A stretch of 64,000 nt of DNA. Source: Yuukianura sp. NJ FZ-2021 (taxonomy: Eukaryota). The position numbers were made by a program, and so were the translations under genes. This document shows positions 1-49,100 of this stretch, piece by piece (the stretch's first letter is position 1; the number at the start of each line of letters is the position of its first letter). Where the stretch lies: positions 6,324,001-6,388,000 of the forward strand of contig CM102283.1 in NCBI GenBank assembly GCA_046563655.1. Reading direction: 5' to 3'. The notes beneath the pieces were generated by a model, which was given only the letters and a program-made list of their open reading frames with translations, made no database searches and was not told where the DNA came from.

Positions 1-2871
1 CCTGGACACATCGCTGTATCCGTCAAGCAGATTGTATCCTGATTGTGGGAATGGGTGATGGAGAGCCAACTATTGGAAAGACGGAGAAGCAATTGGAGCA
101 CTTATCAATCAGGACGCAACGTGAGTTGGTACTTTTACATCGGGAAGGCGGTGACAAGCCTAGAAACACGGCGCTTTGGCTGAATGCTAGAACCTGGTGC
201 TCGTCTCATCATCATCTCCAATGTCCGAAGCGGATGTTTTCGAAAAAGCCGAAGAACGTGAGTGTTTTACTTGGACTTTAACCAGTATTTTTTAAAGAAT
301 AATTTAATATGCTTGGAATTTCTGATGTTGCAGATTGATTACTTTGAGTCAATCAGAAGAGTCGAGCCAAGTGTGCATTCGGATTTCTCGAGATTGGCTC
401 GATGGTTGACTGGAACTTCAGTTGGACTCGTTCTGGGCGGAGGCGGAGCACGAGGTGCTGCACACGTTGGAATGATTAAGTCAATCCAAGAAGCAGGAAT
501 ACCCATTGATATGGTTGGGGGAGTCAGTATTGGAGCGTTTATGGGTGCTCTGTGGTGTGCTGAGCGAAATGTCACCACGATGACGCAAAAAGCAAGGGAA
601 TGGAGCAAGAAAATGACTCAATGGTGGCGCCAAATTTGGGATCTCACATATCCGGTTACATCCATGTTTACAGGACACGGGTTCAATCAAACTATCAAGG
701 ATACCTTCGGGGATGTACAAATTGAAGACTTGTGGCTACCCTATTTCACAGTTACGACGGATATCACGTCTAGTCAGATGAGAATCCACACCCATGGTAC
801 GTTCATTCTTCATTTAAATAGTAGTTATGAAAATATTCAAATTCCAAACTCCTTTCCTTTCCTACTTTTTGCCTTTCCGTTTGCCTTAATATCTTTTCTT
901 ACCTTTTTGAATTGATTTTTGCTAAAAAATAATTTGCGAAACTACAGACTTTTTGGACATGATGTAATTTGTGGTTGTGTGATTGATAACATAGGATCCC
1001 TTTGGCGTTACATTCGGAGTAGCATGAGTCTCTCTGGTTACATGCCACCTCTCTGCGATCCTCAAGATGGTCATCTTTTACTGGACGGTGGTTACACCAA
1101 CAATTTGCCTGGTACACATTAATAACTCCGCACGATGGACGGCTAAGCATGCTCGACTTATGACATTCGTCCATGCTTAGCCAGAGTCCATCGCAGGCAA
1201 ACATTGAGCCAAGAGTTTGATTGAATTCATATGAGAGCTGGGCCGCTTTTGTCGCTGAATTCCGGAAATGCGAAGTACAAAGCTTGAGAGCATTACATTT
1301 TTGGCGCTTCCGGTTGTCCTGTCCAGATTCCTTTTCCTTATAAGCGTTTCAGTTTTCCTTTTACCCCTTTCCAGCCCGTTTCCGACCAACCAAAGTACTA
1401 GAATGCTTTGTTGAGAAGTTTACGGAAAATTTATTGTTTAGGTTGTCTCTGGCGTTACGTCCGGGCAAGTATGTCGTTCGCCGGAGTGTTCCCACCTTTA
1501 TGTGACCCGGAGGACGGCCATTTATTATTGGATGGATGCTATTCAAACAACGTCCCGGGTCTCAAATGAATTCAAACCAAACTTATTAACTTAAAATTCA
1601 TTATGATTTGTTATGTAAAAGTTGTACATTGTAATATCGTAAAAACAGTTTGGTCAAAAAGTGAGAAGATCAAACATAAGAAAACCAAGCGTAACCTACT
1701 ATTTGTAGTGGTTGTTTCCACTTTTTGACCTTGTCACTTTTTGATCAAATTATTTCGACCATTTCACCTGCTACGGTAAAACTTGATTGTTGCTAAATTG
1801 TAATTTTTGTGTAGGAGATGTCATGAAAAGCAGAGGTGCGTGCCATATTTTGGCTATCGACGTTGGATCTCAGGACGACACTGATTTGACCAATTACGGA
1901 GACTCTTTGTCCGGCTGGTGGTTGCTTTGGCAGAGATGGACTGGTCACTTCCGGACGAATGCCATCAAAGTTCCAAATTTGCCGGATATCCAATCCCGAC
2001 TGGCGTATGTGTCCTGTGTGAAGCAATTAGAGGAAGTCCGGAATAGCGACTACGTCCACTATGTTCGACCACCGATTGATAAGTACAAGACTCTCCAGTT
2101 TGGCAGTTTCGACGAAATTAAGGTAAACTGAATGGAAGTCATGTTTAGACTCTGGTTAGAAGCATTGTTGCTGGATGGATAAAATATTTCTTCCACTTTC
2201 CTCGAAAGTGGTGGATATATCTGGATTTTATTGGCTTGTCCTGGACGAAACTCCGTTTCGTTCGTCAGGAACTGTATTTTATTTGGATTTATTCATCTAT
2301 TACCTGGACGAAATGCTAGCAAAAGGCTAACAGCAACACTTGCTACATGTATTCCGGATTATAATTGATTTGATTTTTGTAGGAGGTGGGATACAATCAC
2401 GGCAAGACCTATTTCGATGGAATGCTTAGGGGAAGTCAACTGTCGCCGAAGGGGTCTGGGCCATTGGTCAATCCACAACAAATACTTCAGCGTGTCGCTT
2501 CAAACAGGAACTTGAGCAGTTTGGGTCGATCGATGAGTGGATCCTACAATTTTAATGAAATGGCGCAACTTGTTTGTCAAGTCAAAGGCAACTATTCTGC
2601 GGACGAGTATTCAGGAGACGAAGACTACACTGATGACGAAAACGGATACATCTCAGAACCTTCAGCAGAAATCCTTCACCTCGCCAAAAAAGAAGTAAGT
2701 TCTAAAGAATAGTGCTTGGCACTACTGAAACAGTATGTATTGGCAGTATGCTTTGATGAAACGGTGGTTTTATAAGATTCTTTTGACTTTTAGTATGAGC
2801 AAGAGCGTGAGGATGGAACGCTTAGTCCTGAGCTGCGTCGCTTGGAAGATGCGGAATTAACTGATGCTTAA
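1..2871 (+). CDS. sws: Neuropathy target esterase / swiss cheese (PNPLA6/7-like patatin phospholipase), 3' part; multi-exon, 5' end outside the window
   Basis: Patatin motifs GGGARG, GVSIG (catalytic Ser) and LLLDGGY; NTE-typical [12 protein letters not shown] and [14 protein letters not shown] introns join ORFs 45, 262, 919, 1787 and 2386. Stop TAA at 2869-2871. Confidence 0.93.
995..1111 (+). other. sws: sws alternative exon A (117 nt, DGG version)
   Basis: atag|GATCCC...CCTG|gtacac, phase 1-1; encodes [39 protein letters not shown]. Confidence 0.9.
1442..1558 (+). other. sws: sws alternative exon B (117 nt, DGC version), probable mutually exclusive partner of exon A
   Basis: tttag|GTTGTC...CCGG|gtctca; same length and phase as exon A; encodes [39 protein letters not shown] with no stop codon. 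Confidence 0.85.
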
Positions 2872-3081
2872 AAAGACCTGATTTTTTGCTCCAAAGATAT
2901 CACTCTACTTCTCTATGTACTTCGTGGCTTTAATTGTTTGAATTCTTTGAATTATTGTACTATTCCATGGATTCTAGGAATACGTATTATTTAAATGTCA
3001 TTGTCTAAATTATTCGTTATGAAGCGCTTTTATTCCGGGTTTACGAATATAAAAATAATCCATGAATTAAAAACGAGATTT

Positions 3082-5286
3082 TCATTGTTCTCTTGTGATC
3101 TGTTCGACGTTGGGGGAGCTTTGATTAGTCAACTCTGGGTCTAGCAGTGACAGAAAAGCACCAACCAAATGAAGTGATCCAGTGACGAGAACATTGACTT
3201 TTGTATCTTTTGACATTTCGTCTAAATATTCCATCGCTTCGTTGATAGAATGTGGCAGTTCCAGAGTCCGTTCTGTTGGACATAATCGTTTCCAAATAGA
3301 GCCAAGCTTAATTGCTTTTTCCATTACGTCTGTTTCATCCCTCACTGCGGACCAGTTATCTACACAAAACAAGTGGAAAATTTTCAAGACCATTACAAAC
3401 TTATTATCTAAGAAACTCCAGAAATAAACAATGATTTTTCTTGACTCACCGGCAGCGCCAGCTTCCAGAGTGACAATTGGACAAAACACGGCAGAATCGT
3501 AGTGGTTCGAAATGGCTAGCGGACGGAGCATCTCCTCGGCGTTTCTATCTCCGGTGACGTTGAACAGCAAAACTCTTAGGGTTGATTTGTCATCAGCGGT
3601 TTGACGAAAGAACCACTCGTGAGCAGCCATCAAGCTTTCAGCAGTATGAGCGCCATCTAGGAAGTATGTGAGTTGCGAACTCCGCTGGAGAATCTACAAA
3701 TGAGAATCCAATTAGTTTTAGCAACTACCATTTATGGTATTTACATTGTCTGAATCAATTTACCTGAAATCGACCTGGCCAGAAGCAATTTGCAAGTCCG
3801 GAGCGATGCCAAGACAGAAGCGGAAACGGTTGACCAATCACAGCTTTAGAAATTGAACCTGATAGTCGCTCGGGATATTTTTGTTGAATGAAGGTGTTTG
3901 CTAGCTGAATTGCGAGCGAGGCATTCAAACGGGTGACGGCACTGTCATCCTTGAACACTGGAAGTCTCTCGTAAGAAGTCAACGGCGGTGCAATAAGTAA
4001 AGGACACTGTTGGGTGTATAAACAATACTTGTTCAAGTAATGCAAAAACAAAAAGAAACGAAAAAAGAAGCATAATACTTGCAAATACCTTGGCTTTCAC
4101 GGCATGATCATGCAATACTTGGAGAATATAATTCGGATGTGTTGGAACCGTGAAACATGGAACACCCGTTTTCATGATCCCAGCCTTTGCTAAAGCTATT
4201 TCTTCAAGCGTGTTTCCCAGTACGTGTTGATGTTCCAGTGCTAAGGAAGTGATTCCAGTCACAATCGGTCTCCTACAAGAGTGCATAAATTATTGTCAAT
4301 TTTGCTTTTAGCTAATTTGTGTAAAATGTGTGCAAAAAGCATTCAATCGTACGTCATCAATTGTCAATCGTCAATTGATTTGACCAAACCAACCTGACTA
4401 TATTCGTAGAGTCCATCGTCCCGCCCATTCCGACTTCCAAAACGACCACATCCACCTTTTCTTGGAAAAATGCATAGAATCCCATACAAGTCAGAAAACG
4501 AAAGTAAGCCGGCATATCATCTTCCGATTCCTGAAACCACAAACTTTTATGTTAAACATGAAATTGTACTGAATTACAGCTTTCAGTCTATACCTTAGAA
4601 GATTCCATGTTTCGGTAAACGTGGAAAAAGTACTTTGCAAACTTGTCCTTGGACAATGGTTTCCCATCAATACGAATCCTTTCTCGTACAGCAACTAAAT
4701 GTGGCGATGAGTAAAACCCGGTTCGAAGTCCGGCATGACGAAGAATGCTTTCGACAAAGGCACAAGTCGTTCCCTTTCCTTTGGTCCCAGAGACATGAAT
4801 AACATTTAGCGTATCTAACTGATCTCTTGTGAGTCCACCACGTTCAAGATTCCGGACAGTTTCCGCGAGTACTTCTTCGGCAGATACGTGTGGATTTCGG
4901 CTCCAATGCTGCAAAGTCTTCACGTTGGATTGAAGCGTGTTCAACTTTTTAATTGCATCCTGCAAATCAAATGAGGAAGTCAGTTGTTTTGTTCATAAGA
5001 GCTCAACGATAGTTTAGTTAGTAACCTCGTAAGTGTTTTCGGTCTTTACTGTTGAAGTTGAAATACTGCGACATGGATGAGGCGAAAAATGTGTTGTGAC
5101 AATAGACCGACTCGAGCACACGGCGCAAGACGTCATGACGCTGGCAAGTGGCGTTGTCCTTCCTGGATGATTATGTCGCGACACCAATAATGAAGCAATT
5201 TGGGTAGCTCTTGAGTGTATGAAGGGAGACTTCGGAATGAACACGTTTCGTTGTAGTGTACTAAACACTTTAGTAGTTAGAACCAT
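3082..5286 (-). CDS. FPGS: Folylpolyglutamate synthase with a mitochondrial-type N-terminal extension; multi-exon
   Basis: DAIKKLNTLQSN, IHVSGTKGKGTTC, GFYSSPHL, LEVGMGG, KAGIMK, WPGRFQ, YFLDGAHT and LVTGSLHLVG. The first coding exon is Arg/Ser-rich. Confidence 0.93.
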
Positions 5287-6394
5287 GAGCCTAGAAATAG
5301 GACATGAAGATTTTGCCCTGCAAACACAAATTACATAATAATTCAAAAAGAAGTTGAGTTGACCTTCAATCTTATCAAGCAAAAACTCACTCCCATTTAA
5401 ACTGGTACTTGAGGTGTCAAAGGTCACTTTTGACTTGTCTGCGCATGTCGTTTCTGCAACAGTGTAAGAAAATTCTGAAGCATTCGTGGTTTCGTGCGTA
5501 ACTCATCATGATAATGTGGCCATACTTACGTTTACGTTAGAAGTGACATTGTACCAGTGCGTCATTTACTTCATCTTTCCGGTTCCGCAAAACAAAATTC
5601 GTGCATTTGAATCTTGGAGTTACTGAAAATTTTCATCACAGATTCACAGACCGTACGTCAGTTCCGTAACACGAACAGATTGGAATTAAACTTCATAGAG
5701 TCCTAATAAAATCATTACCTCGTAAGCAATTCCAGAAAGGCTGTCTCCGTTCCTCACCTTTGACCCGCCCCAGTCACACGATTTTATGTTCAAAGTTCAT
5801 AATTTGATGATGACCTTTGCTTTTGCTGAATTCGCCTTCTCTTGTCTCTTGTTCTAGCCGAAAACAAAACAGTGAATCACCAGCTGACTTCCTTAAAGCT
5901 TAAGTTACCCGCTTCTGGGATTCACTGGTGGTATTGCCTCACTTGGGTTGTTGAGTTGTTACAGCTCATCCTACCACGCTCTTTTCTTCACAGATTTTAA
6001 TTTACCAAATATTGTGTTTTCATAATTAAATTAATTAGCAAATAATTAGTTAATTTACTTCTTAACTCATCCTCATAAGACGCGTACTCCAAAGAATGAC
6101 GCTATGAAAGTTTTGAACCAAAGAAGGCGGGATTTTCGCCCACTATTTTCCATGATTTGATGTTGACAAATAAAACAGGTGACTTCGTTGTTGCTGGAAC
6201 TGGAAGGACAAGGAAGGCAGGTAAGCATCAGTTGATCTGTTGATGGACGTTAATTATTTAGGGTAGCAATTATAATTAAGTACATAATAGCAATTAGTAG
6301 TTGTAAGTTCTCAAAGCACGTAGTACTAACACAACAAAGGTAGAAAGGCTTCAATTTCAAACAGTACTTGAGTTTGTTCGATTCAAAACAGGTC

Positions 6395-8492
6395 ATGGAG
6401 ATGGAGCCGGAATCCCCTAATGAAAATCAGCAACGCTCACCGGAAACTGAGAATACTGGGGTGCAAGTGGATCGAACAGAACCGTTATTGGTATCCGACT
6501 CTGAGACTGACCCGCCATTTATTACTGAAGAAGACGATTCAGATGATTTGAACAGACTACTTTCTGGTAACAGTCAGTTTTCCTTAGCCACCGAATCGAG
6601 ACTCCATTCCGAAGTGGATACTCTGGAGGAGAGCCAGAAAGCAGATTCAATTACAACGTCTAACGACTCCTCGACAGCGGCTGTTGATGAGCTGTTTGAC
6701 CAAGATGGACGTGAAGGTGGTATGGACTTGTCATGTGACGAAGAATGGAAAACTCAGAAACGACACGTTTTTATTCTGAGTGAATCTGGGAAACCAATTT
6801 ATTCCAGGTAAAATAGAGAAACTTGATGGACTCACATTCTATTACTCACTGAAATGTGCTAAAGTTACGTAACATGTTTACTGATTTCAGGTTTGGGAAT
6901 GAAGATAAACTGGTGACACTCTTCGGTTTAATGCAAGCCCTCGTCTCAGTTGTCCAGGATGATGATGACACTATTCGTTCCATTTCCATTGGGAAGGTCC
7001 GAATTGTGTTTCTACTTAAAACCCCACTGATTCTCGTCGGCGTTTCTCGACAAGGCCAATCAATTTCCCAGATGCAGACAGAATTGATGTAAGTCTCCAG
7101 TTGTAAAAACAAACTGATTTACATTTTTGTTGTAATTTTCCTCTTTATCTCCACAGGTACTACTATAATCAAGTTGTCAGCATTCTTACATTGAAGCAAC
7201 TGGAAAAGATTTATGAAAAGCGGAGAAATTACGACCTCCGCCGTCTTCTAGCCGGTATGTACCACCAGGATACCATGAAACTCTGGTTGATGTTGTGATG
7301 CAATTAGTTTTTGAAGAAACTTAAATTTATTCTTGCAGGGTCGGAACGTCTTCTAACTTCACTATCGGATTCCATGGAAGACGATCCCAGCTTCATGTTG
7401 GGTGCTGTCCGATGTCTCCCACTTGCGAACAACGTTAGGGAAACAATAGCAAACACTATCATCCAACACACTACAAAACTGAAGGACGTTGTGTTTGCAA
7501 TACTAATTGCTGGGAACCAATTAGTCACGCTTGTTAGAATGAAGAAATGTTTTATGCATCCTACGGACCTTCTGATTATACGAAATCTTGTCAATGCCTC
7601 TGAATCTTTCAAGACCGGGGAGAACTGGACCCCGATTTGTCTTCCACGATTCGATCCAAGGTATTTAGAACTACTCAAAAAGACTGTCTAATTTAAAAAA
7701 AAAGTAAGCATTGGAAATTGACATTTGAACTAACCTTTCAGCGGTTTCGTGCATGCCCACGTATCTTACCTGACAGACGACTGTGAAGCATGTCTCATTT
7801 TACTGACTGTGGATAGAGATTCCTTTTTCGCATTATCCGCGGCGAAGCAAAAAATTGTCGAGGTATTTGATGTTTTTTTTAGTTAGAAAATACCCTAACC
7901 ATCCTCAATTTGTGTAAGTCAAACTTATTTTTCAGAAACTTTGCAACACAAACTGTCTGGAGAGCATCACAACCGCAATTAAAAGCTCATGGCCAACCAT
8001 GAGTGCCGTATCAATTCCACAAATTCGACATTTCATCTACAAGTCCAAACATATCGCACAATTCACATCCACAAATCTATTAATGTCTGCTGTCGAATCC
8101 CATGAATCACCGACTCCAACCTCAGGAGAACCAAACAGTAACAAAGGACCGAGAGCTTGTCCAGCATTTCTGCGACTGTTTTCTACATACTCCAAAATCC
8201 ATGCCAGACTGCATAATCATTCAAGGCCACTGAGGCTCCTGTATACCGTCGGAAACAACGAAAACTTTATGGGATGGGTACGATCTCAAGAAAATCAGCT
8301 TCAGAATTTTACTTTTCGTGGGGTTAATTTTAAAATTTTACGATTTTGCAGGTAACGAGTACTTTTGAGTTGTACTTGACATTTGAGCCTTTCACGAAGA
8401 AGCCTGTAGCTATTGCTGGAGTGGAAAAACTGTTGAAATGGGTTAAGAAAGAAGAAGATCGTCTATTTATTACAAACTCGCCCACTTTTTAA
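6395..8492 (+). CDS. MON1: Vacuolar fusion protein MON1 homolog; multi-exon
   Basis: HVFILSESGKPIYSR, NYDLRRLL, NWTPICLPRFD, C-terminal LLKWVKKEEDRLFI. Confidence 0.92.
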
Positions 8493-8565
8493 GTAATATT
8501 AATTAGGAAATAGTTTTAGCTGAATTGCATTATTGAGTCATAGGAAATACAAATTGAAATTCTTC

Positions 8566-11500
8566 TTACATAATAAACTTCTTCGCATTCGAATTGAAAA
8601 CTTGTTTGCGCTTCACGAGGATGGGAGGTTCATCATCATCATCATCGTCGCCACTATCATCATCTTCATCAATGACAAGATGTGGTGACATGTCATTGTC
8701 AGTTCCCTCTTCCTCGTCATCTCTATCATCTTCATCATCATCGATAAAGTTTGACATATCGTTGTCATTTTCTTCATCTTCATCATCAATGAATTCACGA
8801 TCTTCATCGTTCTCTTCCTCTTCAGCAGAAACTTCTTCAGAAGATTCAGAGTCCGCTGGCTCTTCCATTTCTTCATCACTCTCCAGACAATCTTCCCCGT
8901 CAAAGGCATACATAGCCAAGGAATTCTTGGTCATAATGATTCCCTTCTCCCACAAATCGGCACAAACCTGGATCTGTTTGAAAAAAGAAAACGCATTTCA
9001 GTAATCAATTGAATTGACGTTAGTAATGAACATGAGGTTGTCCATTCTTACTTTAAGATCCTGATCTTGCCCTGGAATTTTTTCAACTGCAACGAATTCC
9101 GGGTAAGATGTAAACAAGAATTCCACCGCAGGGCCAGCATTGTCCGGTAGTTCCAAATATGCTGGCTCCTCCCCATGATATTCAAGTGAATTTTGAGCAT
9201 TGAAGTACAGGCGCAAACTCCCTTCTTCCAGGACTAAGCGACAGGCATGACGACGAACCAGCTTCACTTCTACTTCACGACCCATCTCGACTCTATTGAG
9301 CACTGTTCCCTCGTGTATGAATTCACCGTCAGCAAACACGGTTCGACGTTTCTCCTAAAATTTTTAAAGAAATCAGTGTGTCATGAATAAGTTGACGATA
9401 AAAATGAAACTAAAATGAAACTGAATTACCTTGGATGAGAGAAATGGCGGTAGGGAGTCCCATACGAGCTTCTTCCCAAGCTGATCCACGGCCAAGTCAC
9501 AAGACTTTGTCAAAATCCCTGCAGCCAGTTTCTTAACTTTCGTCTGGAATGCTTCTCGTTGTTCCAGAATATGTTCCTCGGTCCTGTCTTGATGAACAAT
9601 TCCCATGTATGACAAATAGTCCAGTGGAAGGCCGCGACGAAGCTCTAAAGTGCTGGCCATTGCCTCCTCCAAAGCCATTGGCAAATACTGAAAAGTCAAA
9701 CGATTGTAAGTTTCTTTTGCAAATTGCCGTAACTTGAAATGTGTTAACTACTTACAGCGCTTATCAAATCTCCATAAGTATTAGTTTGATAGGCAGAAAT
9801 TGTGAGGTGCAGAGAGTGCTCATCGGTACAGTTAGCTTGATGAATGATTCCACGGGGAAAGTACAGGAAGTCACCGGGACCCAACGTCACATCCAAGATA
9901 GGAGCCCCCAATTTGTCCTTCTCTTCATTGAAGTTCTTACTGGAAAATCGCGGTAGTTGTTCATTCTTTTGCCGGGGTTTGTATAGCTTCCAATTCTTGT
10001 AGCCCTCAATTTGGAGTATGAAAGCTGTAAATGCAAGTTAATTGAATAATAAGTAATACATCATGTTTCGATTATTATATTTTAGCAGTACCCAGTACAG
10101 TTTAGTAAAAAATCGAGACAAACATACCTTCAATGTCATCAAAATGCGGTGCGAAACCTTGTGAATCTGAAACAGCAAATTCATTGTTACTTAGCTAATA
10201 TGATCTCCAATCAAGTTTAAATTGGTTTCATCCGAATGTTCCATAGTAATCACCTGGCGGTGTAAGGTAAGCGTTACATCCGACAAAAGTTCCCAAATAC
10301 TCCTGTAATTGATTTTTAAACATTTAAGCGTGTGATGCTGCTTATAAATAAGTAAAAAATAGCAATTCGAACCTGCAATGCAGCGTTCATTCTCCAAATT
10401 GGCTTGATATAGGTTTGTGGATTTAAAAACCGGACGGAGTTTCCGTTACTGAAATAATCCCAAACTACTGCCGGAAGAGCTCGTGTGCCATCAGCTGGAT
10501 TGTGTGTTTGGCGTTCTCCGTCTAAATTGAGAAAAGTAAAGTTAAAATTAGACTAATCTTAAGCTCAATTACTCGTGTAATTCGGACTAGCCAAAATTTT
10601 GGAAACTCGGTTTAAATTCTGTTTCAGGTAAAGTGTCTCACCGATGTAAGAAGTGATGTCAATGTTTTTCCCAAACTTGATATTATTTTTTCTGAGAACG
10701 TCATCAAGGGTTGATGAGGTCATAAGCCATTTGAAAAGGTCATGTTTCTCAGTTCGTTTCAGATGAAGCGGTTTCTTTTCCCAGTGCTCGGCGAAGAATG
10801 TCTCCGTGGTCATTGGATGAATAAGCCATTCGAAAACATCTTTTCCATGTAAAGCGCTATCATAAATAGGTGCAGAATCGAAGAGCGATTCGATGGACGC
10901 CAGTCGTCGTGAAGTTCTTGTTGGCACGGCAGGAGGAGCAGCAGATGCAGAATGTTGCGCATTCGATTGCTTCTTTTTCTTAGGCTTCAATCCGTTCGAT
11001 ATTTGTGGCGCTGGAACTGGGACTTCTTCCTCGTTTTCATCATCGCTCTCGACCACGACTACTCGCTTTTTCTGTTTTGGTTCAATAGGTTTTTTCTGTG
11101 GAGCTTCAAACGTATTGCTGGACGGTTCTGCCAATTCCAACCGTTTTTTCTTTTTCTTCTTCTTCTTATTTAAATCGTTCAATCCAGGAGTAGAAGCTGT
11201 GGGCGACGACGTATTGTTAGTATGGTCCTCACTGGTCATCAATGATTCGGATAATTTCCTCTTCTTGTTCTTTTGTTTCGGTTTACTTGCTTCAATTGAT
11301 GGAGGCTCAGGTTCTTGTTCTTCGCGTTTAATAACGTTTTTCTTCTTCGGAGATGATGGTGCTGGAACACTTTCTTGCTTAACATGATCAGCATTGCCTT
11401 TGCTCTTCCGTTTCCTATTCTTTTTCTTCCGGGAACGTACGCTTGTATCCTCAAAAGACCGAACGCCTGGAATCTGGTTGAAGAAAAAATCAGTTCACAA

Positions 11501-11611
11501 GACAAATAACTAATTTCAACACCGCATAAGCAAGTTTACCAAGTTCTTGTAGACAGCAAATGCAGGTACTTTCGATGGGTTGAAACCCTGATCGTCCGAA
11601 TCGCTGTCCAT
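8566..11611 (-). CDS. NO66: JmjC ribosomal oxygenase / histidyl hydroxylase NO66 (RIOX1-like); multi-exon
   Basis: FFAEHWEKKPL, YLTPP, QGFAPHFDDIEAFILQIEG, LLYFPRGIIHQA, LRRGLPLDYL. Basic Lys-rich N-terminus and acidic C-terminal tail. Confidence 0.9.
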
Positions 11612-12327
11612 TTTGGTCGTTAGTGAGACGTCCTTCAAGAGGTAAACAGTATTTGACTAATAATGACACACAGAATTAGTATGTTACAGAATTACAACTC
11701 TTTCCCGAGACTGATGCCGGAGAGAAGCTGTAGAATGGCAATTATTATTATCGGTACCTTGTCTTGCCGGGCGACAAACGCAGCACGGTCCGGACAATGA
11801 TAAAACAATGGACAAAGACGTCAGCTCCAGCGGAAACTTGTAGAAAGGATTGATTGCTAATGGCATTCAATAAAATAAAATTAGTTCGACTTATTAAATT
11901 GCATCTAAGTCTTAGCTTGTTAGCTTACCTTCCTTGTTCCCTTTCTAAATTTAATCGGTTAATTGGCCTAAAACGTTAGTTTCTTCCACAGTTGGTCGGT
12001 GCAACTGCAAGCTCAGTCAAACATGTGCTTCCCTCCCTCACCATGTTCGGAATTCGGATGGCAAATGCTCCATTCGAGATTCGAATTCGAATAACATTGC
12101 TAAAAAAAAACATTTTTTTTTGCCTCAAAAAATTTGAAATTATTGCTCGCGCCATTCAACACATATGATAAAAAGAGCAAAAAAAATTGTTGTGAGTGTG
12201 ACACAGAAACATGTGTTGATCAATCAGAAATTAATTAATTAATTATTTAATTTGTTATAATTTAACAAATAACAATTAGGGATAGGTTATCGTTTCTTTT
12301 TGATTCATAGGAAAAGTATTCCCGAAG

Positions 12328-14783
12328 ATGGGTGGAGTAGGAGTAGGTCCGATTCCGGCAGGTTGGTTGAATTGTCCCAATGCAGGAACGGTAATTGACG
12401 ATACATTCTTAGCATTCAAAACACCACTACAATCAGCCTTTGATACTCAACTAAGGAAGAATCGACGCTGGAATCCTGACTGCGTTTTTCGCTATATAAA
12501 GGAAAATGAGGTGGGTCTGGTATAATAATGAAATATTTACATCAGATAAATTGTTGATCTTATGTAATAATTTGTGATTATCCGCAGATACCAATGGGTC
12601 TCTGGATTGATTTGACAAACACCGATCGATACTTCAACAAATCCGAAGTAGAAAAACATGGAATCAAATACCTTAAGCTAAAAATTGGAGGAGGTGGGGA
12701 GGTACCATCACCGTCTACCGTGAAAAAGTTTATTACACATTGCCAATCGTTCCTGGACACGCATCCGGGTAGTGTCATAGGAGTACATTGTAAGATTCTA
12801 GTGGTAGTGGTATAAGAAATGTGTTCATGAACTTGATCTCCTTTAAAATGACTTTATGAATTCAAATCAAGGTACCCATGGTTTCAACCGGACTGGATAC
12901 CTCATCTGCTCATTCCTTACTCAAGTGAAAAGAAAATCCATTGACGACGTGTTTACCGAATTTTGCGTTGCTCGTCCACCCGGAATTTACCGACAAAGCT
13001 ACGTTTCGGCTCTCTGGAAAATCTTCTCAACTCCGAATTTACCGATCATGCCTTCAGTTCGTGAGCCTTTCTGGAGCCAAAGATCGGCTCGTGCCGTGGG
13101 ACACAACAGCAAACCAACAGCGCAAAATATTAGCAACCCAACATCAACATCCTCATCTTTAATAGTATTGAAGCGGCAATATGTTCACGATTTATCCCAT
13201 CCATCTTTACCAGCAAAACGCGCCTTTATTGATCAGTCAAAACATCCACAATTTTTCGGGAATGTTCCTGGAATTCATTACGTTGATAATCCATTGCTGC
13301 GAGAGCAAGTCTTAACTGATGTCCGACGAATGTGCCTGGCTTCTACAAGTTCACACAGCACAGCACCAGTTCCACCAAGGTTTGTCTTCTAATCATGAAA
13401 CACTCAAAGCTTAAAATTGTCTCTTAATCCTAATTAGTTGGATTTTGATATTGTGGGCTTAGTTACTTCAATGAGTACCCTGGAAGACAAGGCAATGACA
13501 TCCGAAAAGAACATTTACAATTGATAAACGAAAACTACGTGGTGACATGGACTGCAACAACATCTACTAAGTATCTACTGCTAATTAAGGCTCCCCAGCA
13601 AGTTTTCTTTATCGATACGACCTGTTCCGTCTTCCAAGTCCATGGAATGACATTCCCTGACAGAAGAGACTTCCGGAAGGCCCACGTCACTGACACACTT
13701 CTTGAAGGGGTAAGTCCTGCGATACAGTTGTTGACATTCGGTTCGAAATGACTATATGTTGCTCTATTCCTTCAGGAAGCGGTGATGTCCAGTTATCAAG
13801 GGGGTGTACTACCGCGATTCTTTGTTCATGACATTATCTGCTTTCACGGCAGCCCTCTCTGTGATGTCAATCACAAGGACAGGATATCCGTCATCAAAAA
13901 GGAAATTCTGGAACCGAGAATGTCGTGTCTCAAAAATGGAATTATTCTCAGGAGGAAAGAATCACCACTTTGGCTCAATACGAAACCGTTTTGGCCTAGT
14001 TGTGCTGCTAGTGACATCCTTCAGGTTCGGGATGACTTTTGCGTTGAAACCCCAGTGGGATTACAATTTATGCACATAAATGAGGTAAACCAAACGCAGT
14101 CGCTCATGCTACTCAGAATTAGTGGTGCTAAATTGCTTGACATCCAACTAAAAACTAAAGTTGAGTAGTGTAGTCATTTCATTTCAATTGGTAATGTGTT
14201 GTTTCTTTGTTTAGCCGTACAATCCTCGGTTTGGTAGTTCCGCACTGAACTGGAGAAGAAACAATTACGTCAACTTCCGGATATCAGTTGATTTTGTGTA
14301 AGTTTTTTCTTGACATTCAGTTTTGATTTGCTCTGTGAAGACACGAAATTGGACTGTGTGTTTGCTCATCTAATCGACCGTCGAATCCGCTAGTTTTAAT
14401 AACATCAAATTTGAAATCTAGGAAACGAAATGCTGATCTGTTTCTATTGGAGCTCATAACTCCGTTTGCAACGATACCGCTTGATGGTCACATCGAAAAA
14501 TTTGACGGAAGAATAGGAGTGTTCAAGTACCACGCGGAAAAAAAGCAGTGGTGGTTTATGGAGGAAGCCAACACGTTTGTACCTGGATCATACGGTGATG
14601 CTCTAAAAGGTAAATGCTTGGCAAATTACTTATAACAAGTCAAATGCTCCGGGGATTAATTATAATTCTACTTTGTGATTAAATTATAGTTATGTCCATG
14701 GAAGGGTTGGAGCCACTGTCCGAGCAAATCCTCCTGGAAGCTATCAATCACAATCAATCCATAATTTCATCGATACCAAATAG
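12328..14783 (+). CDS. mRNA-capping enzyme (RNGTT)-like paralogue: intact RNA 5'-triphosphatase plus degenerate guanylyltransferase domain
   Basis: GPIPAGWLNCP, FLAFKTPL, GLWIDLTNTDRYF, GVHC|THGFNRTGYLIC and ARPPGIYR. The downstream region aligns to the GTase fold (YPGRQ, TLLEG, PRFFVHDII) but lacks KxDG. Confidence 0.82.
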
Positions 14784-15292
14784 TTAATGATCAATTATTT
14801 CTCCAAGTATTGCTTCGGTAGCATTCGATTCCCAAGTACTTAAACCACACGCTAAGGAAAGACGCGTTAGCTTTAGATTTGAAGAAATATATTTAAATAA
14901 AAGCGTTAATTATTAAGTAGCGAAAGCTACTTTATGTTTCGACCTTGACTGTCTGTCTGGCCGGCCAATGGCGGCAGTTATCTCGGAAGCGGCTCAACAT
15001 TTCCGCGATCTATTTCCACCAGTACTATTAGGACCACGGGATGTTCACTATTAAATAGCATCCCGTTGGGTCAATTACGTCCGGGTGAATGGTAAAGGTC
15101 AATGAGTTCTATTTGAAATAGAAAAAAGGTAAACATCGTTTGCATTATGACCTGAGAGTGTAAAGTAATATTTAGTACGCCTATTATTTATCGGGCATGG
15201 AACTCTGTAATACAAATACATTCAACGTGTTTTAATTTAGTCGTAGAATCTAAATATTGAATTTGAAATTCACAAGCCCACGCGTCCTTCCG

Positions 15293-16279
15293 TCACTCTT
15301 TCTCTGGCAAGTCATTCGGCTCCTGTTTTTGCCGCTTCCGGGCTCGAATGTCTGCCAAAGTTTCTTCTATCGTTCTTTTGTCCTTCTTCTGCTCACTGGA
15401 GACTAAATAATTTTTTAAAAAAAATCAAATCATGCAGACGTAATTCCTGTTGAAGAAACCCTCACGAAATGGACATTGACTTGACTTACCAAAACCATAC
15501 GATCTCTCAACTACTGTTGTCTTTGCGGCAGCCTTGGCTACAGCTAATCCACCTTTTGGAAAAAAAAAAAGTTTCTGTTAACATTCCTTTGATTCCGAAA
15601 GTTTCCTCGATAAACATGACGTTTACAAACCAAGGTGCTTTTGATATTTTTGAAGGTACTCTGGTTGTAGTTTTTTCCTAGTTTCGGTGGTGCTAGTTTC
15701 TTGGGAAGAATCTTGATCATTGTCTTCTTCATCTTCTGGAGGTGGAACATAAACTTCATTCCGCCGCATTGCAGCAAGTTCCGGTTCGGAAGGTACTGTA
15801 TGCTGTCGAAATATAATAACGTGGCGATCCACTTCGTCTTCGCCAATGGAAATGGGAACCAGACTTGCACCTTCTGCTATATCGTGTCTGCAAAATCAAC
15901 AAGAATTAAATTATGACTATAGTTCTAACGAGAACAAACGACAGAATTGCTCTTACATGATTGACCGATGGATTTTGTCCATTGTTCCAAACGTGAGCCG
16001 AGGTCCTTGGCCTTCATCAGTATCAAAACTAGTTATCTTCTTGGTAACTTCTTCACGGAAGGTTTGAATCCTTTTCTGTGATGCTTCCTGTTGCTTCAAT
16101 TGCAGCTCTCGTTGTTCTAAAAATTGCCAACAAGAAAACATTACTTATGCGTTAGATTGCTCATTGCTCCAATACGTCATAAAGAATTTGAGTGGCCTAC
16201 TCTGTCTAATTTTCCGCTCTTTCTCGTCCATAACTGGAGGGGCCGTCATTTTCTTTAAAATTGAACCAAGCAAATCCAT
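15293..16279 (-). CDS. SPAG7: Sperm-associated antigen 7 homolog (R3H domain)
   Basis: MDLLGSIL start, MDKIHRSI, PSEPEL, KYQKHLG, C-terminal RTIEETLADIRARKRQK. Confidence 0.85.
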
Positions 16280-23400: not shown

Positions 23401-26400
23401 CCACAACTCTTTCGAAATTACATTTCGATTGCTTTGCTTGAGGCTAAATTCTAAAAATTGAATTTTTTTAAAAGAAATTTTTTCCAAGCGTAACCGAATC
23501 TGTGTTGGCTTCAGTTCAGAAAAATTTGCCAAAATAAATTTGGGTTTGACTCTTGGCTCGACTTTTCGAAATCTTTATCAAAATCGTGTCATTTTGAATT
23601 CTCAATTTTGAATTCATTGGAGCCTAGTCAAGAAACCGGGAGGTTTGGGTTTATGTGAAAGTCAGGATAAATCAGTGTCACATTTCTCAAATAGATTTGA
23701 TATATGGGGAAGGGTGACGAAGCGATCTGTGTGGTTTGGAGTCTTGTGAGCCCTTTAAGGGACAAATTGAGAAAAACTGCCAACTTCTGTCCAAGTTCAA
23801 TTCAACTTTCTTCTTGTCTTCCTTTGAACAAAGTTTGAGGCGCCTCAATTTGTGCAGTGGCGGAGAAAGGCGGGTGTTATGAACAAAATCCTTTTTGTTC
23901 CACTACGAAACCAATCCTCTCGGCAGCCTACACGCTTCCAGCGTGCAGCGTTTCCTTCCAGCGTTCAGTGTTCGCTTCCAGCTACCCACACAGTTCCTTT
24001 TTCTTTTAAGATGGAAGTGTCCAGGTTTTGGTGCTGGAAGTGTCCATTCATCCAGAAGATGCTTCCTGACTCTTCCTTTATCCTCCCTCTGTTAAGTTAC
24101 GTTTAGACTTTCACTCGGGGCCAAAATAATATTGTTTTCTCTGGATGCTTTTAGCCTCGGCGTGTCCTGGACACAGAATAGAGGCTCATTTAGGGTATTA
24201 AGTCCCCACCACCTAGTCCACTCTTTATGGAGTCCACTGCGGTGGCCAGTATTTCTGGAGAGAATGGACTCAAGGATTTAGCATTTGAGATATGGAAGAA
24301 AAGGAATTGGAAATTGGAGAGAAAGAGTAATGGACAAAACGGTGAAATTGAACAGCAGGATCCTACGCGTTTTAATCACAGCCATAAACTTCTACTGCTG
24401 CCGAAAGGTCATTGACCTCTCAAAAGAATTCCCATGGCAACCAGACAAACGACCAAATAATGAGCTGATCTTTGTGTTTTTCAAAAAAACTTTAGTAGAT
24501 TTCAGTAATTATTTTTTTGTTCCTCATTTCAAGCACGTCTCACAAACTTTTTGAATCAAATCCGAAACTCTCAGAACGAAAAACTTTCTCAAGATTCTTC
24601 AACTGAAACGAAAATCGGACTGGTGAGTTTCACTTAACTTCGAAAATTATACCAAAACAAACACTTTTAACTGAAATTTCCCGCTTTTTTTAGATTTGAA
24701 AATGAGTCGTTGTCAAAGCGCCAGTGGCAGTCGTTGTCAGAGTGCCAATGGCAGTCGCCGTGGCAGTCGCTGTCCAAGTCGCCGTGGATCCAATTCCAAC
24801 TTGGCCCAAATGATGCTCCAATCAGCTCGTCCAGCAGGCGGAGCCTGTTGTCGCTCCGGATGTACCGTTTGTATTCCCGCGCCTTGTCCAAAACCACCAT
24901 GTCCACTTGGAATCTACGTCGAACGAACCAAGTCACTCAAACCGAACGTCGAATTTGTACCGAGCTGTGCCAAACTTGACGGTCTCTCGACCTACCGCGA
25001 ATTCTTTTACCCAAAATGTGGAGATCGCGTCAAGTCCTTCAAGCCAACTACGTACATCGATCCATCATGTGCAAAAATGGATGGATTGACGACATACCGC
25101 GAATTCTACTACCCGAAATGTGGACTTAAAGCGGAATCGTTCAAGCCTGCAACGATGGTAGACTTTTCTTGTGCCAAAATGGAGGGCCTTACGACCTACA
25201 AGCACGACTACATTGGAGTTTGTGGTGAACGGGTCAAGTCTCTCAAGCCTTTGACACAATTTGATCCGTCGTGTGCCAAAATGGACGGATTGACGACTTA
25301 TCGCATGAATTACATTCCGTACTGCCCGAGAGAAATCGGACGACCGGAGTCACTCAAACGGCTCAACGAAGTCGACTTTTCCTGTGCACCGTTTGATGGC
25401 ATGACGACATACCGTGGAGACTTTTGGTGCAAACCGATCGTTCGTGTCCAGAGTCTCAAACCGACAGTTCGTGGAGCCTTCAGCGATGCACCGTTTGCCG
25501 ATCGCACGACTTATCGCAACGACTATCATCCGTTTCACTTTGATAAGAACTGTGGCGGTGGAGGACCCTGCATGCCGGTGCCTTTTGGACAAGAAATGTC
25601 GCCACATCTCTTCTGTGCCAATACGGCTGACTGTTGTGACACAACTCAGAATGCACAATCGACTGGAACTGCGGATGCTCAAATGGGATCGTGCGGTGAC
25701 GGAGGTGGAGCAGATTCGGCAGCGGATTGCCCAATCACGGTTTCTGTTGGAACCTGCTAGGAAGGAGAAGCCTGATAAAAATACGCCAAGATTCAAATCT
25801 TCCCACTTCACATTCAAATATACAAAAGCAATAACAATAATAATGTTTGTCCAAATACTTAAAAAAACGAAAATAGAGCAATTTTGTCAAAACTGATCCA
25901 AAAAATATTACTTTCTACAAATAAAAACGAAGATGAACTTTAAATTTTCCAGCCTCACGTAAAATTGCAAACATAACAATATTAATTTGATTATTCAATT
26001 CTGGAAGAAAAAAAAACAACGAAAAAAGTTACGCCTTTAGATAAAATTTCGAATTGTGAGAATATCCCCAATCATAATTTCAAAAAATAAAAACGAATTT
26101 AGAAAACTGGACCAACATTGTTAAAACTACTAAAAATATTGCTTTTTACAACTAAAATGAAAATGAACCTCATAAAAAACATGGAAGGGAAGTAAACATA
26201 GTGCTAAATATTAAATATTAAACCAAAGTGAGAAAGTTTTGAATTTGTTTGCTTTTCAGATTCAGAAATAAAATATGCAAACGTCAGTAAATTTTAGCTG
26301 ATGAAGTTCCATTTTTTTGAGTCAACAGGCAATGTCTTTCCAAAATTTTCCTTCCAAAAACTTCTACTTTCTGAAACTTTTAAGTTGGTTTATGATCCTA

Positions 26401-44506: not shown

Positions 44507-46169
44507 GATTGAAGTGTATTCAACAAAGAATCAGGATAATACTATGAGTCTTCAACGACTTTCTTCTTCGCGACGAACCAAGAACGATAGATTACAGCAG
44601 GATTGCCTTCTATCTGCTGTTATTTGACGTCACCACTACAAGATCACGTCCGGGGTTCCGTGTCCGACTCGAATGAAAGATTTCAAATTTAGGTGTTAGT
44701 CCTTTTGTGTCGTAGTAGTTAAATTGAAAGTGGGACAATTGTTGCAAATAGAACTGTGACGTTACACCTGATTAATTAATTTTGAAAAATTTCCCTCAAC
44801 CACAAACGAAGACAGCAGAAAGGAGATGATAACAATGGATGGAAAAGAGAATGGATGAGAGAGAAGAGAGAGAGGGAGTGAGAGTGAAATGATGAGAGGA
44901 TGGGAAGAATTTGTTAGGGTAACACGGAGTTATCCCCGTTGTAACCTCCAGAACCACCACCGCAACGCTAGGTTCTATTTACGCATCAACTCTATCTTTA
45001 TGTATTACACATCTACCTATCAACCAACCACCCAGTAGCTACTTACTAAAAATCGCATTTATAATCAATCAGCAAACTATCCAACTTTATAATAGAGGAG
45101 ATGTAGAGTTTTATTATCCGTAGCAACAACAACTGAAAAATAAATAAATCAATAAAACTAAAAATATGAAGCACAAGCTTCAAATCTAATAAAGAGGGCC
45201 ATTTTTTCTTTGACGTTAGCTTGAATCTGAATACAAGAAACTGTTTAAAAAAGGTTTTTAATACAATTAAATTCATGTGGCGTTTTGTCAATTTTTTTTT
45301 CACAAAGCGCAAATGTTTCGGTTTTACATCGTGCTGTAAATAGCTTTGATTAAAATTGGGTCGGTGTACAGAACAGCACGTACTGTAGCAACTACGACAT
45401 AATGTTACCTAAGTGCCAAATGTTACGACTTCGCACAAGAGAAGACTGGTTACGGTACGGATAGGGCAGTTAGGTCTTGGTCATATTGTGTGGTTACAAC
45501 AGGAAACTTCTGCTTTATGTCAACTTGGAATTGTGAAATGATATTTTGAAATTTCCGCTCTAACGGCCACTTGTTCTTGTTGTTGTTTTAGTTTAGGTGG
45601 ATTACACTGTCGTCAGCTGATGCTGATGAACACGTAAGAAACGGAGAAGCTTATTAGATACACGTTAGGTTAGACGTTAGGTAATTAGTAGTAGTGGAGG
45701 GTCAGTCATCAGCCTCGTAGGTCACTCAACGGTCACTGCCATTGTGCCATTATTGGATTATCAACAACATACTGGAATTCTCTTGGTGGATGGCAGTGTC
45801 TCAACGTTTCCTTTCCCGGGGTTGACTGACGGAAATTAGTTGAGCAAACTACGATTGACATACGATCGACGTACGGTACACGTAAGTCCTTCTCCTTACA
45901 GAATTCAGTTTAGTATAGGTGCAGTTAATGAGCATGCTCTGATTTTTAGGTAAAGTCCTACTACTTATACACACATCTTTCATTCGCACATAAATACATC
46001 TTATGTAAGTTGGATCATGATCATACTGACTGATGCGGGTTAATTGGTAATGGAAATGCATCTTCCCCTAACCTTCCACCATTTATACAACGCACACAAA
46101 CTTAAGCTACTGTTAGGTACATACTCATGCATTGGTTCCTTTATTTTTCCGAAGACCTGATTTAACAGG

Positions 46170-49100
46170 ATGTCAGACTCTTCGAGACTTTCAGCTTCAT
46201 CGAACAGTAACGCTGAACTCGCCAAGCAGTACCGAAAGAAGTACCCAAACGATCCGGACTACAGTTTGTTTACCGTTCACTTTTCGGCCCAACTTGAGTT
46301 CCAGGCATACACTGGAAGCAGGGTGGGGAAACATGAAACGTTGCAACACCTTGAATTAATTTTATATTCCAATTTCCTGAAGCACCTTATGAAACATCAA
46401 TCGAAACTGAAGGAAATTGCGAGCTCAATTTATCGAGAACATCAGCGGGGATTGACCGAAAAGCTTTTCGGAGAATTCAATAAAGACACGCCACTCAAAA
46501 CCAGGGTCATCAATGAAATACATTCCTACGCCGAATTCATGGGCTCCAGTACATCTACGTCGAAGACCCCTCGGCGCTATTTGTTTCAAAACAACGCAAC
46601 GGAACTTCAAAGGATATTGGCTCCTGACTACAACTACAGATCTGCCGTTACTCATGTCAATCTGAGTGACCCGTTTAATCCAATCCATACGACGCTGAGC
46701 TACCCACTGTTTTGTCGGGTGGTGAATACGCAGGTTCATCACAGAGATCCCAGCATAGATACGAACGTTCTCAAGAAATACAACCGCCATGACGAAACTT
46801 ACAAGAAGAAGTACATTGGGCATATGTGCACTGTAGCAGAGACTGATCATGAATTCCTCCTTGCAATTATATCAGCATATGGAGCGGATCCTCGGAAGTA
46901 CCCGTCTTCAGTTCTGGAAATGATGAACGATAGGAAGTTCATCAAAGAATTGTCTGGAGGCAACGAAGCTGTCCCAGAACGAGAACCGGAACCGTCTTCG
47001 ATGAAATCGTTTACAGATCTCTCCAGGACCAGAGAGACGGGGTATGCGGGCGACAAATGTATGCTTCGCACAGTGTCTACTAATTGCTATAAGTTGTCCA
47101 TCCATACTAACTCCTAACTCGAAATCCTTCAAAGTATTTAAGCGGGATACGTCACTAAAGCTGGCTAATTAATTGTGTTTATGGGTTAAATGTTCAGGTG
47201 TATTCCATCTTCCATCCAATCATGCCAGATATTTTTCATTACTATTTTTAATGTGGCAAGCCTAATTCCATTTTAAAATCTTGGGCGAATTCTATGGTTA
47301 ATTTAATTCTTATGTTTCAGAACGCCTGATATTGACACACATCTGGAAGTGGGATCTACGGAGCACCTTGATACAGATTCTGGAAGCTTCAGCAGTACAA
47401 GAAAGGGAGGGGGCAGGGACAATATGGACCAAAGTGGCAATGCTAATGATATTGACATTCTTTCCCAGGATGAATTCAATAAGTCCTTGGAAAAGCCGTG
47501 GACTGAATACCACGGAACAAAGTTTGCTGTCAACATTCCGGACAATTGGTAAACAACTACTTGGATGATTTGATTTTGTTTTGATTATTTTTTTGTTGAT
47601 TGATTGATTACAAGAATTTTTGCAATCTCTGTGTAGCTACTTGGAGTTCAAATCGGGTTTCCCATATCCAAACAATCGAGAAGGGATATTGAAGAACTGT
47701 CTGAATGTGCTGATTTGGGATTGTGAACTCAACATGTGGGATCCGGGCACTTTCAAGATCAAGCGCCTTGCTGACAGTTTTCCGAATCATGTTAAACAAA
47801 TCGAGCAAGATTTGCTGAAGGCACTGCCGAATTCTTCAAAGGCACAAAATCAAGACACTGCATACAACGTAATGAAAAACAACAGATCACTTCTCCAACT
47901 AGCTCTGTTGCCACAGATGAACGACTCCAATGCTGGCAACATAACTTCAAGTGCCACTTCTATTCCAAACGATTGGTCACCAATTCAAAGTTATCTGCCT
48001 TTCGAAACGTTCAAAACTCTCATCTTCAAAATGGCTAAGAAAGATTCATTCTCACCGTCAATCTTTCCGGACATTGATTTGGAAATCTTGAAGTTGAGAT
48101 ACGTCGAATACATGTCCGTTAATCTACAGAATCAGATCAATCAGCAGTTTCTTTTGGGGGTCTTCCATGCCTATGGACATGACGTTACGGTATACCCAAT
48201 CAGAGTTCTCCAACTAATGAAGCAAAAGGAACTACTTCGACCTCGTACTGTATTGCATGATGTTATTGGCGGTATAACAACTTCGAGTGACGCATATGAA
48301 CAAATCTTTGAAAATGGGATCTCGATTCCGAAAGAGCTTCAATTGATTCCAGCTCCGGTAAATCGATTACGAAACTCCAATTTCAGATACATATTTTTTC
48401 AGTTCCTAACCATCTTACTTCTTCAGATGTTTGACGTCGTGACGAAGACATCCTCCGGGGGAACGAAAGATAAATCAAACGAAATTCCAGGAAAGTCTGT
48501 ACAACCACCAGCGTCGACTTCTGGTGCTGTATCAAACGGCATCAAGCAGCCAGCACCCTCCGTGAGTCCAGCTCCAATTCCACCAAACCCAGTCGTCAAG
48601 CAAACAAATCTGGATTCGCCGCACACCATTCCCTCGAGTGAATTTTTTATTTGTTTGGCTCCTATTTGGAGGAAATTCTACGGCGAAAGGGCTGTGGATA
48701 TGCCAACTGCTTGGTATTACTTACAAACATTAAGAATTAATTAATTATTACTACTTATTATTAAACTAATTATTGTTAAAGTCGATTCTCTGATGTAGGT
48801 ATGGATTTTTCAAATCTCAGTTTCCGGAAATAAACAATATGGGTGGTATTCTGGATACTTGCATTGCAGTTTTACTCCAGGATCAAGCAGATTCAAAACA
48901 TTCGAAAAATTGGAAAATCCCACGCCTCCGACCTCATTTTGATCACATGTTCAAGGAGATTGAGAGAGATTTCAAGATTATTGACCCTGGAAAAACTAAA
49001 GTAGAAACACTAGGATGGCAAAACCTTATGGAAGGTGGCAAGTCTCTTCTTCAGCAAGGGCTAATTAAGCCGTCTTCGGGTGGACAAATTGTTCCACAGG

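Follow-up and report, generated by a model that had tools for sequence, protein, structure and literature searches.

Can a gene that is built like an animal mRNA capping enzyme, and whose guanylyltransferase half has lost the residues of catalysis, still take part in capping, and what could it be kept for if it cannot? This question is raised by a gene on the plus strand of a 64,000-nucleotide stretch of contig CM102283.1 from Yuukianura sp. NJ FZ-2021 (hereafter the window, to which all coordinates refer unless another contig is named). The gene (12328-14787) encodes a protein of 605 amino acids (aa) related to the capping enzyme RNGTT, in which an N-terminal RNA 5'-triphosphatase domain is followed by a guanylyltransferase half consisting of a nucleotidyltransferase domain and an OB fold. 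Judged from its sequence, we cautiously favour the reading that it acts on RNA 5' ends as a phosphatase that does not cap them, with a pseudo-guanylyltransferase as its scaffold, and is a conserved, lineage-restricted offshoot of RNGTT. As far as we are aware, animals are regarded as having RNGTT in single copy and as an invariant housekeeping enzyme, and full-text searches for inactive capping-enzyme paralogues, triphosphatase and PIR-1/DUSP11 gave no literature match for an RNGTT paralogue with a dead guanylyltransferase. Two relatives are referred to throughout. One is an orthologue (L001), complete with seven exons and 537 aa, from a metagenome contig of 6718 bp. The other is a protein of 624 aa from the springtail Allacma fusca (CAG7834741.1; P0001), which is the best named match of exon 3 and carries the generic annotation 'tyrosine specific protein phosphatases domain-containing protein'.

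Gene model and catalytic motifs

The reading frame is open throughout all eight exons, and the introns, which are 66-130 nucleotides long, are all of the GT..AG type; the maintained frame and splice sites described in the initial annotation thus hold for 605 codons and 7/7 introns. The start of the gene had also been placed correctly there, whereas the proposed end at 14783 is the end of a stop codon in another frame, the real stop being the TAA at 14785-14787. Neither RNA genes nor repeats were found in the introns of the gene, and tblastn detected no second RNGTT-like sequence elsewhere in the 64-kb window. The exons are the following:

12328-12510 (+): exon 1, with the ATG at 12328; N-terminus of the triphosphatase domain
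12588-12789 (+): exon 2, triphosphatase core (GLWIDLTNT...), with its 3' end inside the P-loop Cys codon
12872-13379 (+): exon 3, remainder of the P-loop, end of the triphosphatase, poorly conserved linker and start of the nucleotidyltransferase-like domain
13463-13709 (+): exon 4, first part of the nucleotidyltransferase-like domain, with the motif I remnant and FPDRRD (13653-13670)
13776-14084 (+): exon 5, motif III/IIIa region, partly kept, and the motif IV remnant
14215-14297 (+): exon 6, motif V remnant, followed by the shortened OB loop
14422-14609 (+): exon 7, degenerate OB-fold remnant including the motif VI position
14690-14787 (+): exon 8, C-terminal helix (LEPLSEQILLEAI) and the stop TAA at 14785-14787

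The P-loop of the triphosphatase, HCTHGFNRTG, has stayed intact (aa 128-137; 12786-12897, with intron 2 inside it). In the guanylyltransferase half, motif I reads WTATTSTKY (13548-13574) with Lys, Asp and Gly changed to Thr, Thr and Ser, and in the HMMER alignment the Thr codon ACT at 13551-13553 occupies the position of Lys294 of human RNGTT. Motif IV reads VGLQF instead of DGLIF (14055-14069; Asp to Val), motif V reads NWR instead of KWK (14248-14256; both Lys lost), and at the position of motif VI, FMEEANTFVPG (14555-14587), RxDK is replaced by E.ANT, by which Arg, Asp and Lys are lost. The intact P-loop as well as these four losses, including the exchange of the catalytic Lys, had been read in the same way in the initial annotation and are borne out. 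Motifs III and IIIa are partly kept: Gly and Glu remain in LLEGEAV, which extends across intron 4 (13698-13784), and Asp remains in FFVHDII (13818-13838). KxDGxR is present in all full-length proteins obtained from the searches (P0023-P0141), and the motif loss in the window copy is far beyond chance. No alternative exon with WKxDGxR was found in any frame of 11500-15300, and the restoration of KxDG by alternative splicing, which had been named as a case to check, has thus no such exon to draw on in this interval. The Lys of motif I is the nucleophile in the formation of enzyme-GMP. With the loss of motifs I, IV, V and VI, the guanylyltransferase should be unable to work by the known mechanism, and neither an enzyme-GMP intermediate nor, as a consequence, capping is to be expected, in agreement with the earlier proposal that this copy cannot cap.

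It is scarcely credible that the protein is still a guanylyltransferase with a relocated nucleophile, for which either the Lys of ...STKY, standing at the Arg of KxDGxR, or the KFDGR of exon 7 (14498-14512) would have to serve. A Lys at this Arg position is common to the window copy and L001, and KFDGR does fit the pattern K.DG.R. However, motifs IV, V and VI are gone as well, and KFDGR, which we rejected as motif I, is a chance look-alike in the OB region without counterpart in L001.

The triphosphatase domain also departs from the canonical enzymes at its N-terminus. Two Arg with a conservation of at least 95% among canonical triphosphatases (in PxRW and CPR; positions 14 and 20 of P0003) are Gly and Asn in the window copy, where exon 1 reads IPAGW (12352-12366) and CPN (12373-12381). 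The same changes are found in the L001 and Allacma copies, whereas only the first is present in the metagenome fragment P0002. An intact P-loop, the loss of motif I and PxGW in place of PxRW are thus common to the window copy, L001 and the Allacma protein. A live triphosphatase, as it had been called, is plausible, with the caveat of the two replaced Arg. One might also think of a cysteine phosphatase that has shifted to a non-RNA substrate, e.g., the phosphorylated C-terminal domain (CTD) that RNA polymerase II (Pol II) carries, or another phosphoprotein. The loss of both Arg in the window copy, L001 and Allacma and of one in P0002 would agree with such a shift, as would the CTD pocket retained beside the cysteine phosphatase (see below). 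However, the P-loop and 44 of the 53 canonical triphosphatase positions are unchanged and no positive sign of a new substrate is seen, so that we regard this shift as highly improbable.

Descent from RNGTT and graded conservation

The family from which the gene descends can be read from both halves. Pfam PF01331, the capping-enzyme catalytic domain, matches exon 4 (6.1e-10) and exon 5 (1e-07), and exon 3 has a weak match to Pfam DSPc. Against the Protein Data Bank (PDB), the guanylyltransferase exons match RNGTT entries only (3RTX, 3S24, 8P4A/B and relatives; ~1e-10), and the phosphatase exons match the RNGTT triphosphatase structures 2C46, 1I9S and 8P4x at 1e-10 to 1e-15, with exon 2 reaching an E-value of 1.7e-15 against the human RNGTT structure 2C46. 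The phosphatase exons match PIR1/DUSP11 structures at just 2e-4 and 2e-3 and the baculovirus phosphatase BVP at 2e-3 and 7e-7. Beetle RNGTTs can be aligned with the spliced protein over its whole length, with 33-35% identity. Because the structural and full-length matches favour RNGTT, the gene descends from RNGTT and not from PIR1; membership of the PIR1/DUSP11 family was rejected, since RNGTT matches far better and a guanylyltransferase-derived half of 350 aa is present. The initial annotation had called the gene a capping-enzyme paralogue. The descent from RNGTT stands by the end-to-end alignment and the PDB matches, whereas the status as a duplicate is something we infer from the essentiality of capping.

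With RNGTT, Mce1 and CEL-1 the window protein shares the order of the two domains, an identical P-loop and homology over the full length. It differs from RNGTT in the missing Lys, Asp and Gly of motif I, Asp of motif IV, Lys pair of motif V and RxDK of motif VI, in an OB fold that is barely detectable, in a shortened stalk-binding loop and in the replaced Arg of PxRW and CPR. PIR-1/DUSP11 and baculovirus BVP resemble it in the proposed mode of action, that is, a cysteine phosphatase on triphosphate RNA ends without capping; PIR1 proteins, however, have no guanylyltransferase-like half. PIR-1 and DUSP11 are described as dephosphorylating triphosphate RNAs (bioRxiv 10.1101/2020.08.03.235143; PMC5066614).

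Conservation was scored against 111 canonical RNGTTs from the searches, which are 560-640 aa long and have both the P-loop and KxDGxR, with shorter, longer and fragmentary matches excluded. The 135 scored columns (53 triphosphatase, 82 guanylyltransferase) show at least 95% identity among these 111 enzymes, from which also the domain hidden Markov models (HMMs; scores in bits) were built:

Triphosphatase columns kept, of 53: window 44, L001 44, Allacma 43
Guanylyltransferase columns kept, of 82: window 37, L001 31, Allacma 33
Triphosphatase HMM: window 220; canonical median 330, minimum 263
Nucleotidyltransferase HMM: window 127; canonical median 367, minimum 295
OB fold HMM: window 17.7; canonical median 169, minimum 137

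The decay is graded: the triphosphatase is kept best, followed by the nucleotidyltransferase and then by the OB fold, and the window protein deviates at 45 of the 82 guanylyltransferase columns. L001 scores -1.8 bits with the OB HMM. Exons 7 and 8 of the window gene have a single last exon as their counterpart in it, and its OB core is short of about 45 residues; the OB fold is therefore dispensable.

Orthologue, selection and wider clade

An exhaustive HMMER search with exon 5 gave 16 proteins at E <=1e-3, among which just two were closer than the canonical enzymes. Both are exon-sized fragments (43% and 37% identity), and both, P0006 (= L001) and P0007, are without the motif IV Asp. A word-based search with exon 3 gave five matches. 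In L001 the P-loop is intact, motif I reads WLGYSSKY, and the first six introns agree with those of the window gene in position and phase. Moreover, both genes are followed by the same minus-strand gene (window 15293-15895, L001 2766-3419). This neighbour is itself strongly conserved between the two contigs, e.g., in an identical stretch of 23 aa that starts with EQKKDKRTIEE, and has no match in Pfam.

The window and L001 proteins are 47% identical. Synonymous sites are saturated, with a proportion of synonymous differences (pS) of 0.81-0.84, which is above the Jukes-Cantor limit, and at four-fold sites under identical residues the third base is the same in 23/82 cases. Identity and non-synonymous divergence (dN) differ along the protein:

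Triphosphatase: identity 58%, dN 0.34
Linker: identity 36%, dN 0.70
Nucleotidyltransferase-like part: identity 45%, dN 0.49
C-terminus: identity 30%, dN 0.77

By tblastn, conservation is highest (54%) in exon 4, where the dead motif I lies. As this comparison indicates, purifying selection acts on the dead nucleotidyltransferase domain, less strongly than on the phosphatase, and the gene as a whole is maintained by selection. In exon 1, the divergent haplotype from run X5 has 12 differences, seven synonymous and five non-synonymous, which gives a ratio of non-synonymous to synonymous proportions (pN/pS) of 0.21. A young, neutrally evolving pseudogene, which had been named as the case that would speak against a functional copy, was rejected, since it is contradicted by an orthologue at saturated synonymous divergence, six shared introns and conserved synteny. 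Very improbable is also a slowly decaying duplicate without a function of its own: the very long branches and the loss of the OB core in L001 would suit it, but the window gene has an open frame of 605 codons with seven intact introns, and L001 keeps the frame and six intron positions despite the saturated synonymous sites, to which the pN/pS of 0.21 in exon 1 can be added.

Two divergent haplotypes of the locus occur in one sample (runs X2 and X5; window 12124-12420). From the window, X2 contig 9 departs by 1 letter and X2 contig 10 by 23, and for the X5 contig there are 74 differing letters and 47 gap letters over 12006-13314, from which a high heterozygosity or population divergence follows.

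The Allacma protein extends the comparison. Its P-loop is intact, and its motifs I, IV and V read WFPEEYFRY, NALIF and KWM. It is 27% identical to the window protein and differs from it in a detectable OB fold and in the absence of the Arg pair of the CTD pocket. Among the 53 invariant triphosphatase columns the window copy deviates at nine and Allacma at ten, and six of these deviations are common to both, compared with about 1.7 expected (hypergeometric P = 6e-4); the residue is the same at 5/6. In the trees, the grouping of the window copy with L001 has a support in the Shimodaira-Hasegawa-like approximate likelihood ratio test (SH-aLRT) of 99 with the full-length proteins and 95 with the triphosphatase alone, and Allacma joins the two with 99 and 89, respectively. 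The metagenome fragment P0002, which has PxGW and GIYRQ, joins with a support of 81. However, the tree program warns of long branches meeting, the Allacma branch having a length of 6.99, and if each lineage is placed alone, both land in the same unresolved group of long-branched sequences. The trees place the window gene loosely among arthropod and other long-branched enzymes. The Allacma protein thus probably belongs to the same clade as the window copy and L001, with long-branch attraction as a possible cause of the grouping, and orthology going back to an old duplication is likely. When the search was started from the Allacma protein, every full-length sequence besides itself among the best 120 of 1029 matches was canonical.

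An AlphaFold2 model of the Allacma protein has a mean predicted local distance difference test score (pLDDT) of 78.9, with high values in the two halves and low ones in the linker. The model best matches human RNGTT (8W8F at 2.5e-40; 3S24 with a template modelling (TM) score, by target length, of 0.79-0.83; 1I9T with a TM score of 0.81), whereby the underlying alignment consists mostly of canonical enzymes and may bias the model to the canonical fold. As a separate observation, the annotated capping enzymes of Blomia tropicalis (P0023) and Darwinula stevensoni (P0024) contain a second, partial triphosphatase-like segment, which in Darwinula has Ser at the position of the P-loop Cys. These extra segments may be tandem duplicates fused by annotation.

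Putative role, possible polymerase contacts and surroundings

In the reading that we favour, the N-terminal domain would be a cysteine-phosphatase-type RNA 5'-triphosphatase that is close to the canonical one and presumably active, and would work like PIR-1/DUSP11 on triphosphate ends of RNAs. The guanylyltransferase half would be a pseudoenzyme, in which the nucleotidyltransferase-like part is still folded and has neither the nucleophile nor the contacts to the GTP phosphates. Without an enzyme-GMP intermediate it would not cap, and a separate canonical RNGTT is presumably encoded elsewhere in the genome. The dead nucleotidyltransferase domain may then be a scaffold or a module for targeting, which possibly docks on the Ser5-phosphorylated CTD of Pol II.

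For such docking, the residues of human RNGTT offer a comparison. The Ser5-phosphorylated CTD is described as bound in a pocket, CDS1, formed by R330, K331 and R386, and at a second site, CDS2, formed by R358, K403 and R411 (PMC8034621). Both sites were mapped via HMMER alignments to chain 8P4B_M and a protein alignment including L001. The CDS1 equivalents are R, R and K in the window copy and R, R and R in L001: the Arg pair at 13662-13667, which lies in the FPDRRD loop that is the same in both proteins, aligns with R330 and K331, and the Lys at 13899-13901 aligns with R386. The CDS2 equivalents are R, R and N in the window copy and R, R and T in L001. This pattern fits a domain in which catalysis is lost and a binding surface is kept, the numbers of residues being small.

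For the OB fold, residues 476-484 of human RNGTT are described as a loop that reaches in between RPB1 and the stalk of Pol II, with the OB fold as the stable anchor (PMC11139899). The corresponding loop of the window copy, which follows motif V, falls about nine residues short of the canonical length. The initial annotation had suggested that the pseudo-guanylyltransferase and its OB fold bind RNA or the Pol II CTD. Binding of the CTD gains some support from the three kept basic residues of CDS1, whereas a use of the OB fold for binding is weakened, since the OB core is missing from L001, the OB score of the window copy is 17.7 bits versus a canonical median of 169 and the loop is shortened.

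A Pol II-docking regulator that uses the Ser5-phosphorylated CTD pocket and either competes with the true capping enzyme in a dominant-negative manner or removes 5' phosphates from nascent RNAs and thereby bars them from being capped is nevertheless unlikely in our view. It is favoured by the CDS1 equivalents with the identical FPDRRD and by CMTR1, which is described as staying bound to the Pol II stalk through a dead guanylyltransferase-like domain (PMC11139899). To that extent, CMTR1 is a precedent for a catalytically dead domain of this type that is kept as a docking module. However, the domain in CMTR1 is fused to a 2'-O-methyltransferase and is of independent origin, and the OB part, the stalk anchor of RNGTT, is the very part that is being lost in the window gene: the main anchor, loop 476-484, is shortened here, and the OB core is missing from L001. 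The position of R411 in CDS2 is Asn in the window copy and Thr in L001, the Allacma protein is without the two Arg, and the count of residues is small.

A more specific version is quite unlikely: a CTD-tethered 'anti-capping' enzyme that docks on the Ser5-phosphorylated CTD and whose phosphatase strips the 5' phosphates from chosen nascent transcripts. These transcripts would leave the capping pathway, e.g., towards small-RNA or decay pathways. We know of no such co-transcriptional switch in any animal.

In yeast, triphosphatase and guanylyltransferase are separate proteins, Cet1 and Ceg1. Complementary degeneration could have re-split the animal enzyme in a similar way, with this copy providing the triphosphatase in trans and another RNGTT, whose own triphosphatase may be weakened, providing the guanylyltransferase. 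The triphosphatase is indeed the best-kept part, and the reverse case exists in Ditylenchus dipsaci (P0016; UniRef A0A915DGR4), where the P-loop reads HCTYGFNLTG (Arg to Leu), DLTNT is degenerate and KxDG is intact. However, a canonical springtail enzyme, that of Orchesella (P0032; one enzyme inspected), has an intact P-loop, and the long branch of the paralogue together with its changed N-terminal Arg suggests an altered rather than a conserved role. We therefore hold a re-split to be improbable.

Several points weigh against the non-capping phosphatase with a pseudo-guanylyltransferase scaffold as well. The loss of the OB core in L001 may mean that the C-terminal half is eroding and not repurposed. 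Gly and Asn in place of two conserved Arg could alter or weaken the function of the triphosphatase. The term paralogue rests on capping being essential. The selection on the dead domain is read from one very distant pair, in which saturated synonymous divergence (dS) precludes a numeric dN/dS, and the scoring of the haplotype covers exon 1 (40 of 177 difference rows, all at 12043-12576).

If the reading holds, a selected phosphatase-only paralogue with a fossil guanylyltransferase scaffold would be a natural separation-of-function allele, which could show roles of the triphosphatase or of the CTD-binding surface outside capping. It might further hint that some invertebrates have a so far unrecognised pathway for triphosphate RNAs, and the graded decay in at least two species would show which parts are needed for the new role.

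The neighbouring genes, named by similarity (window 262-11494 and 33445-55000), are a patatin/NTE-like gene, FPGS (-), Mon1 and a RIOX1-like gene (-), which lies directly upstream of the capping-enzyme-like gene in divergent orientation, and further a myosin heavy chain, a ligand-gated chloride channel and a chitin deacetylase (-). With the FPGS exon as query, the 120 matches listed do not exceed 37% identity, apart from one of short coverage that has 51% over a third of the query. Just downstream of the gene, at 14905-14970, lies a short repeat of very high copy number: in run X1 the summed word depth of contigs rises there from ~190 to >10,000, and many contigs end in it with unrelated loose ends. 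An open frame at 24675-25757 (+) has repeated SLKP...SCAKMDGLTTYR modules and matches Pfam SAXO1-2, a stabiliser of axonemal microtubules, at 5.1e-19. At 46161-51483 (+), six long open frames of 151-378 aa with the recurring motif ...FPxPN..GILKNC...LL... have no Pfam match in the two frames tested, and probably represent either a repeat protein specific to the lineage or a family of tandem genes.

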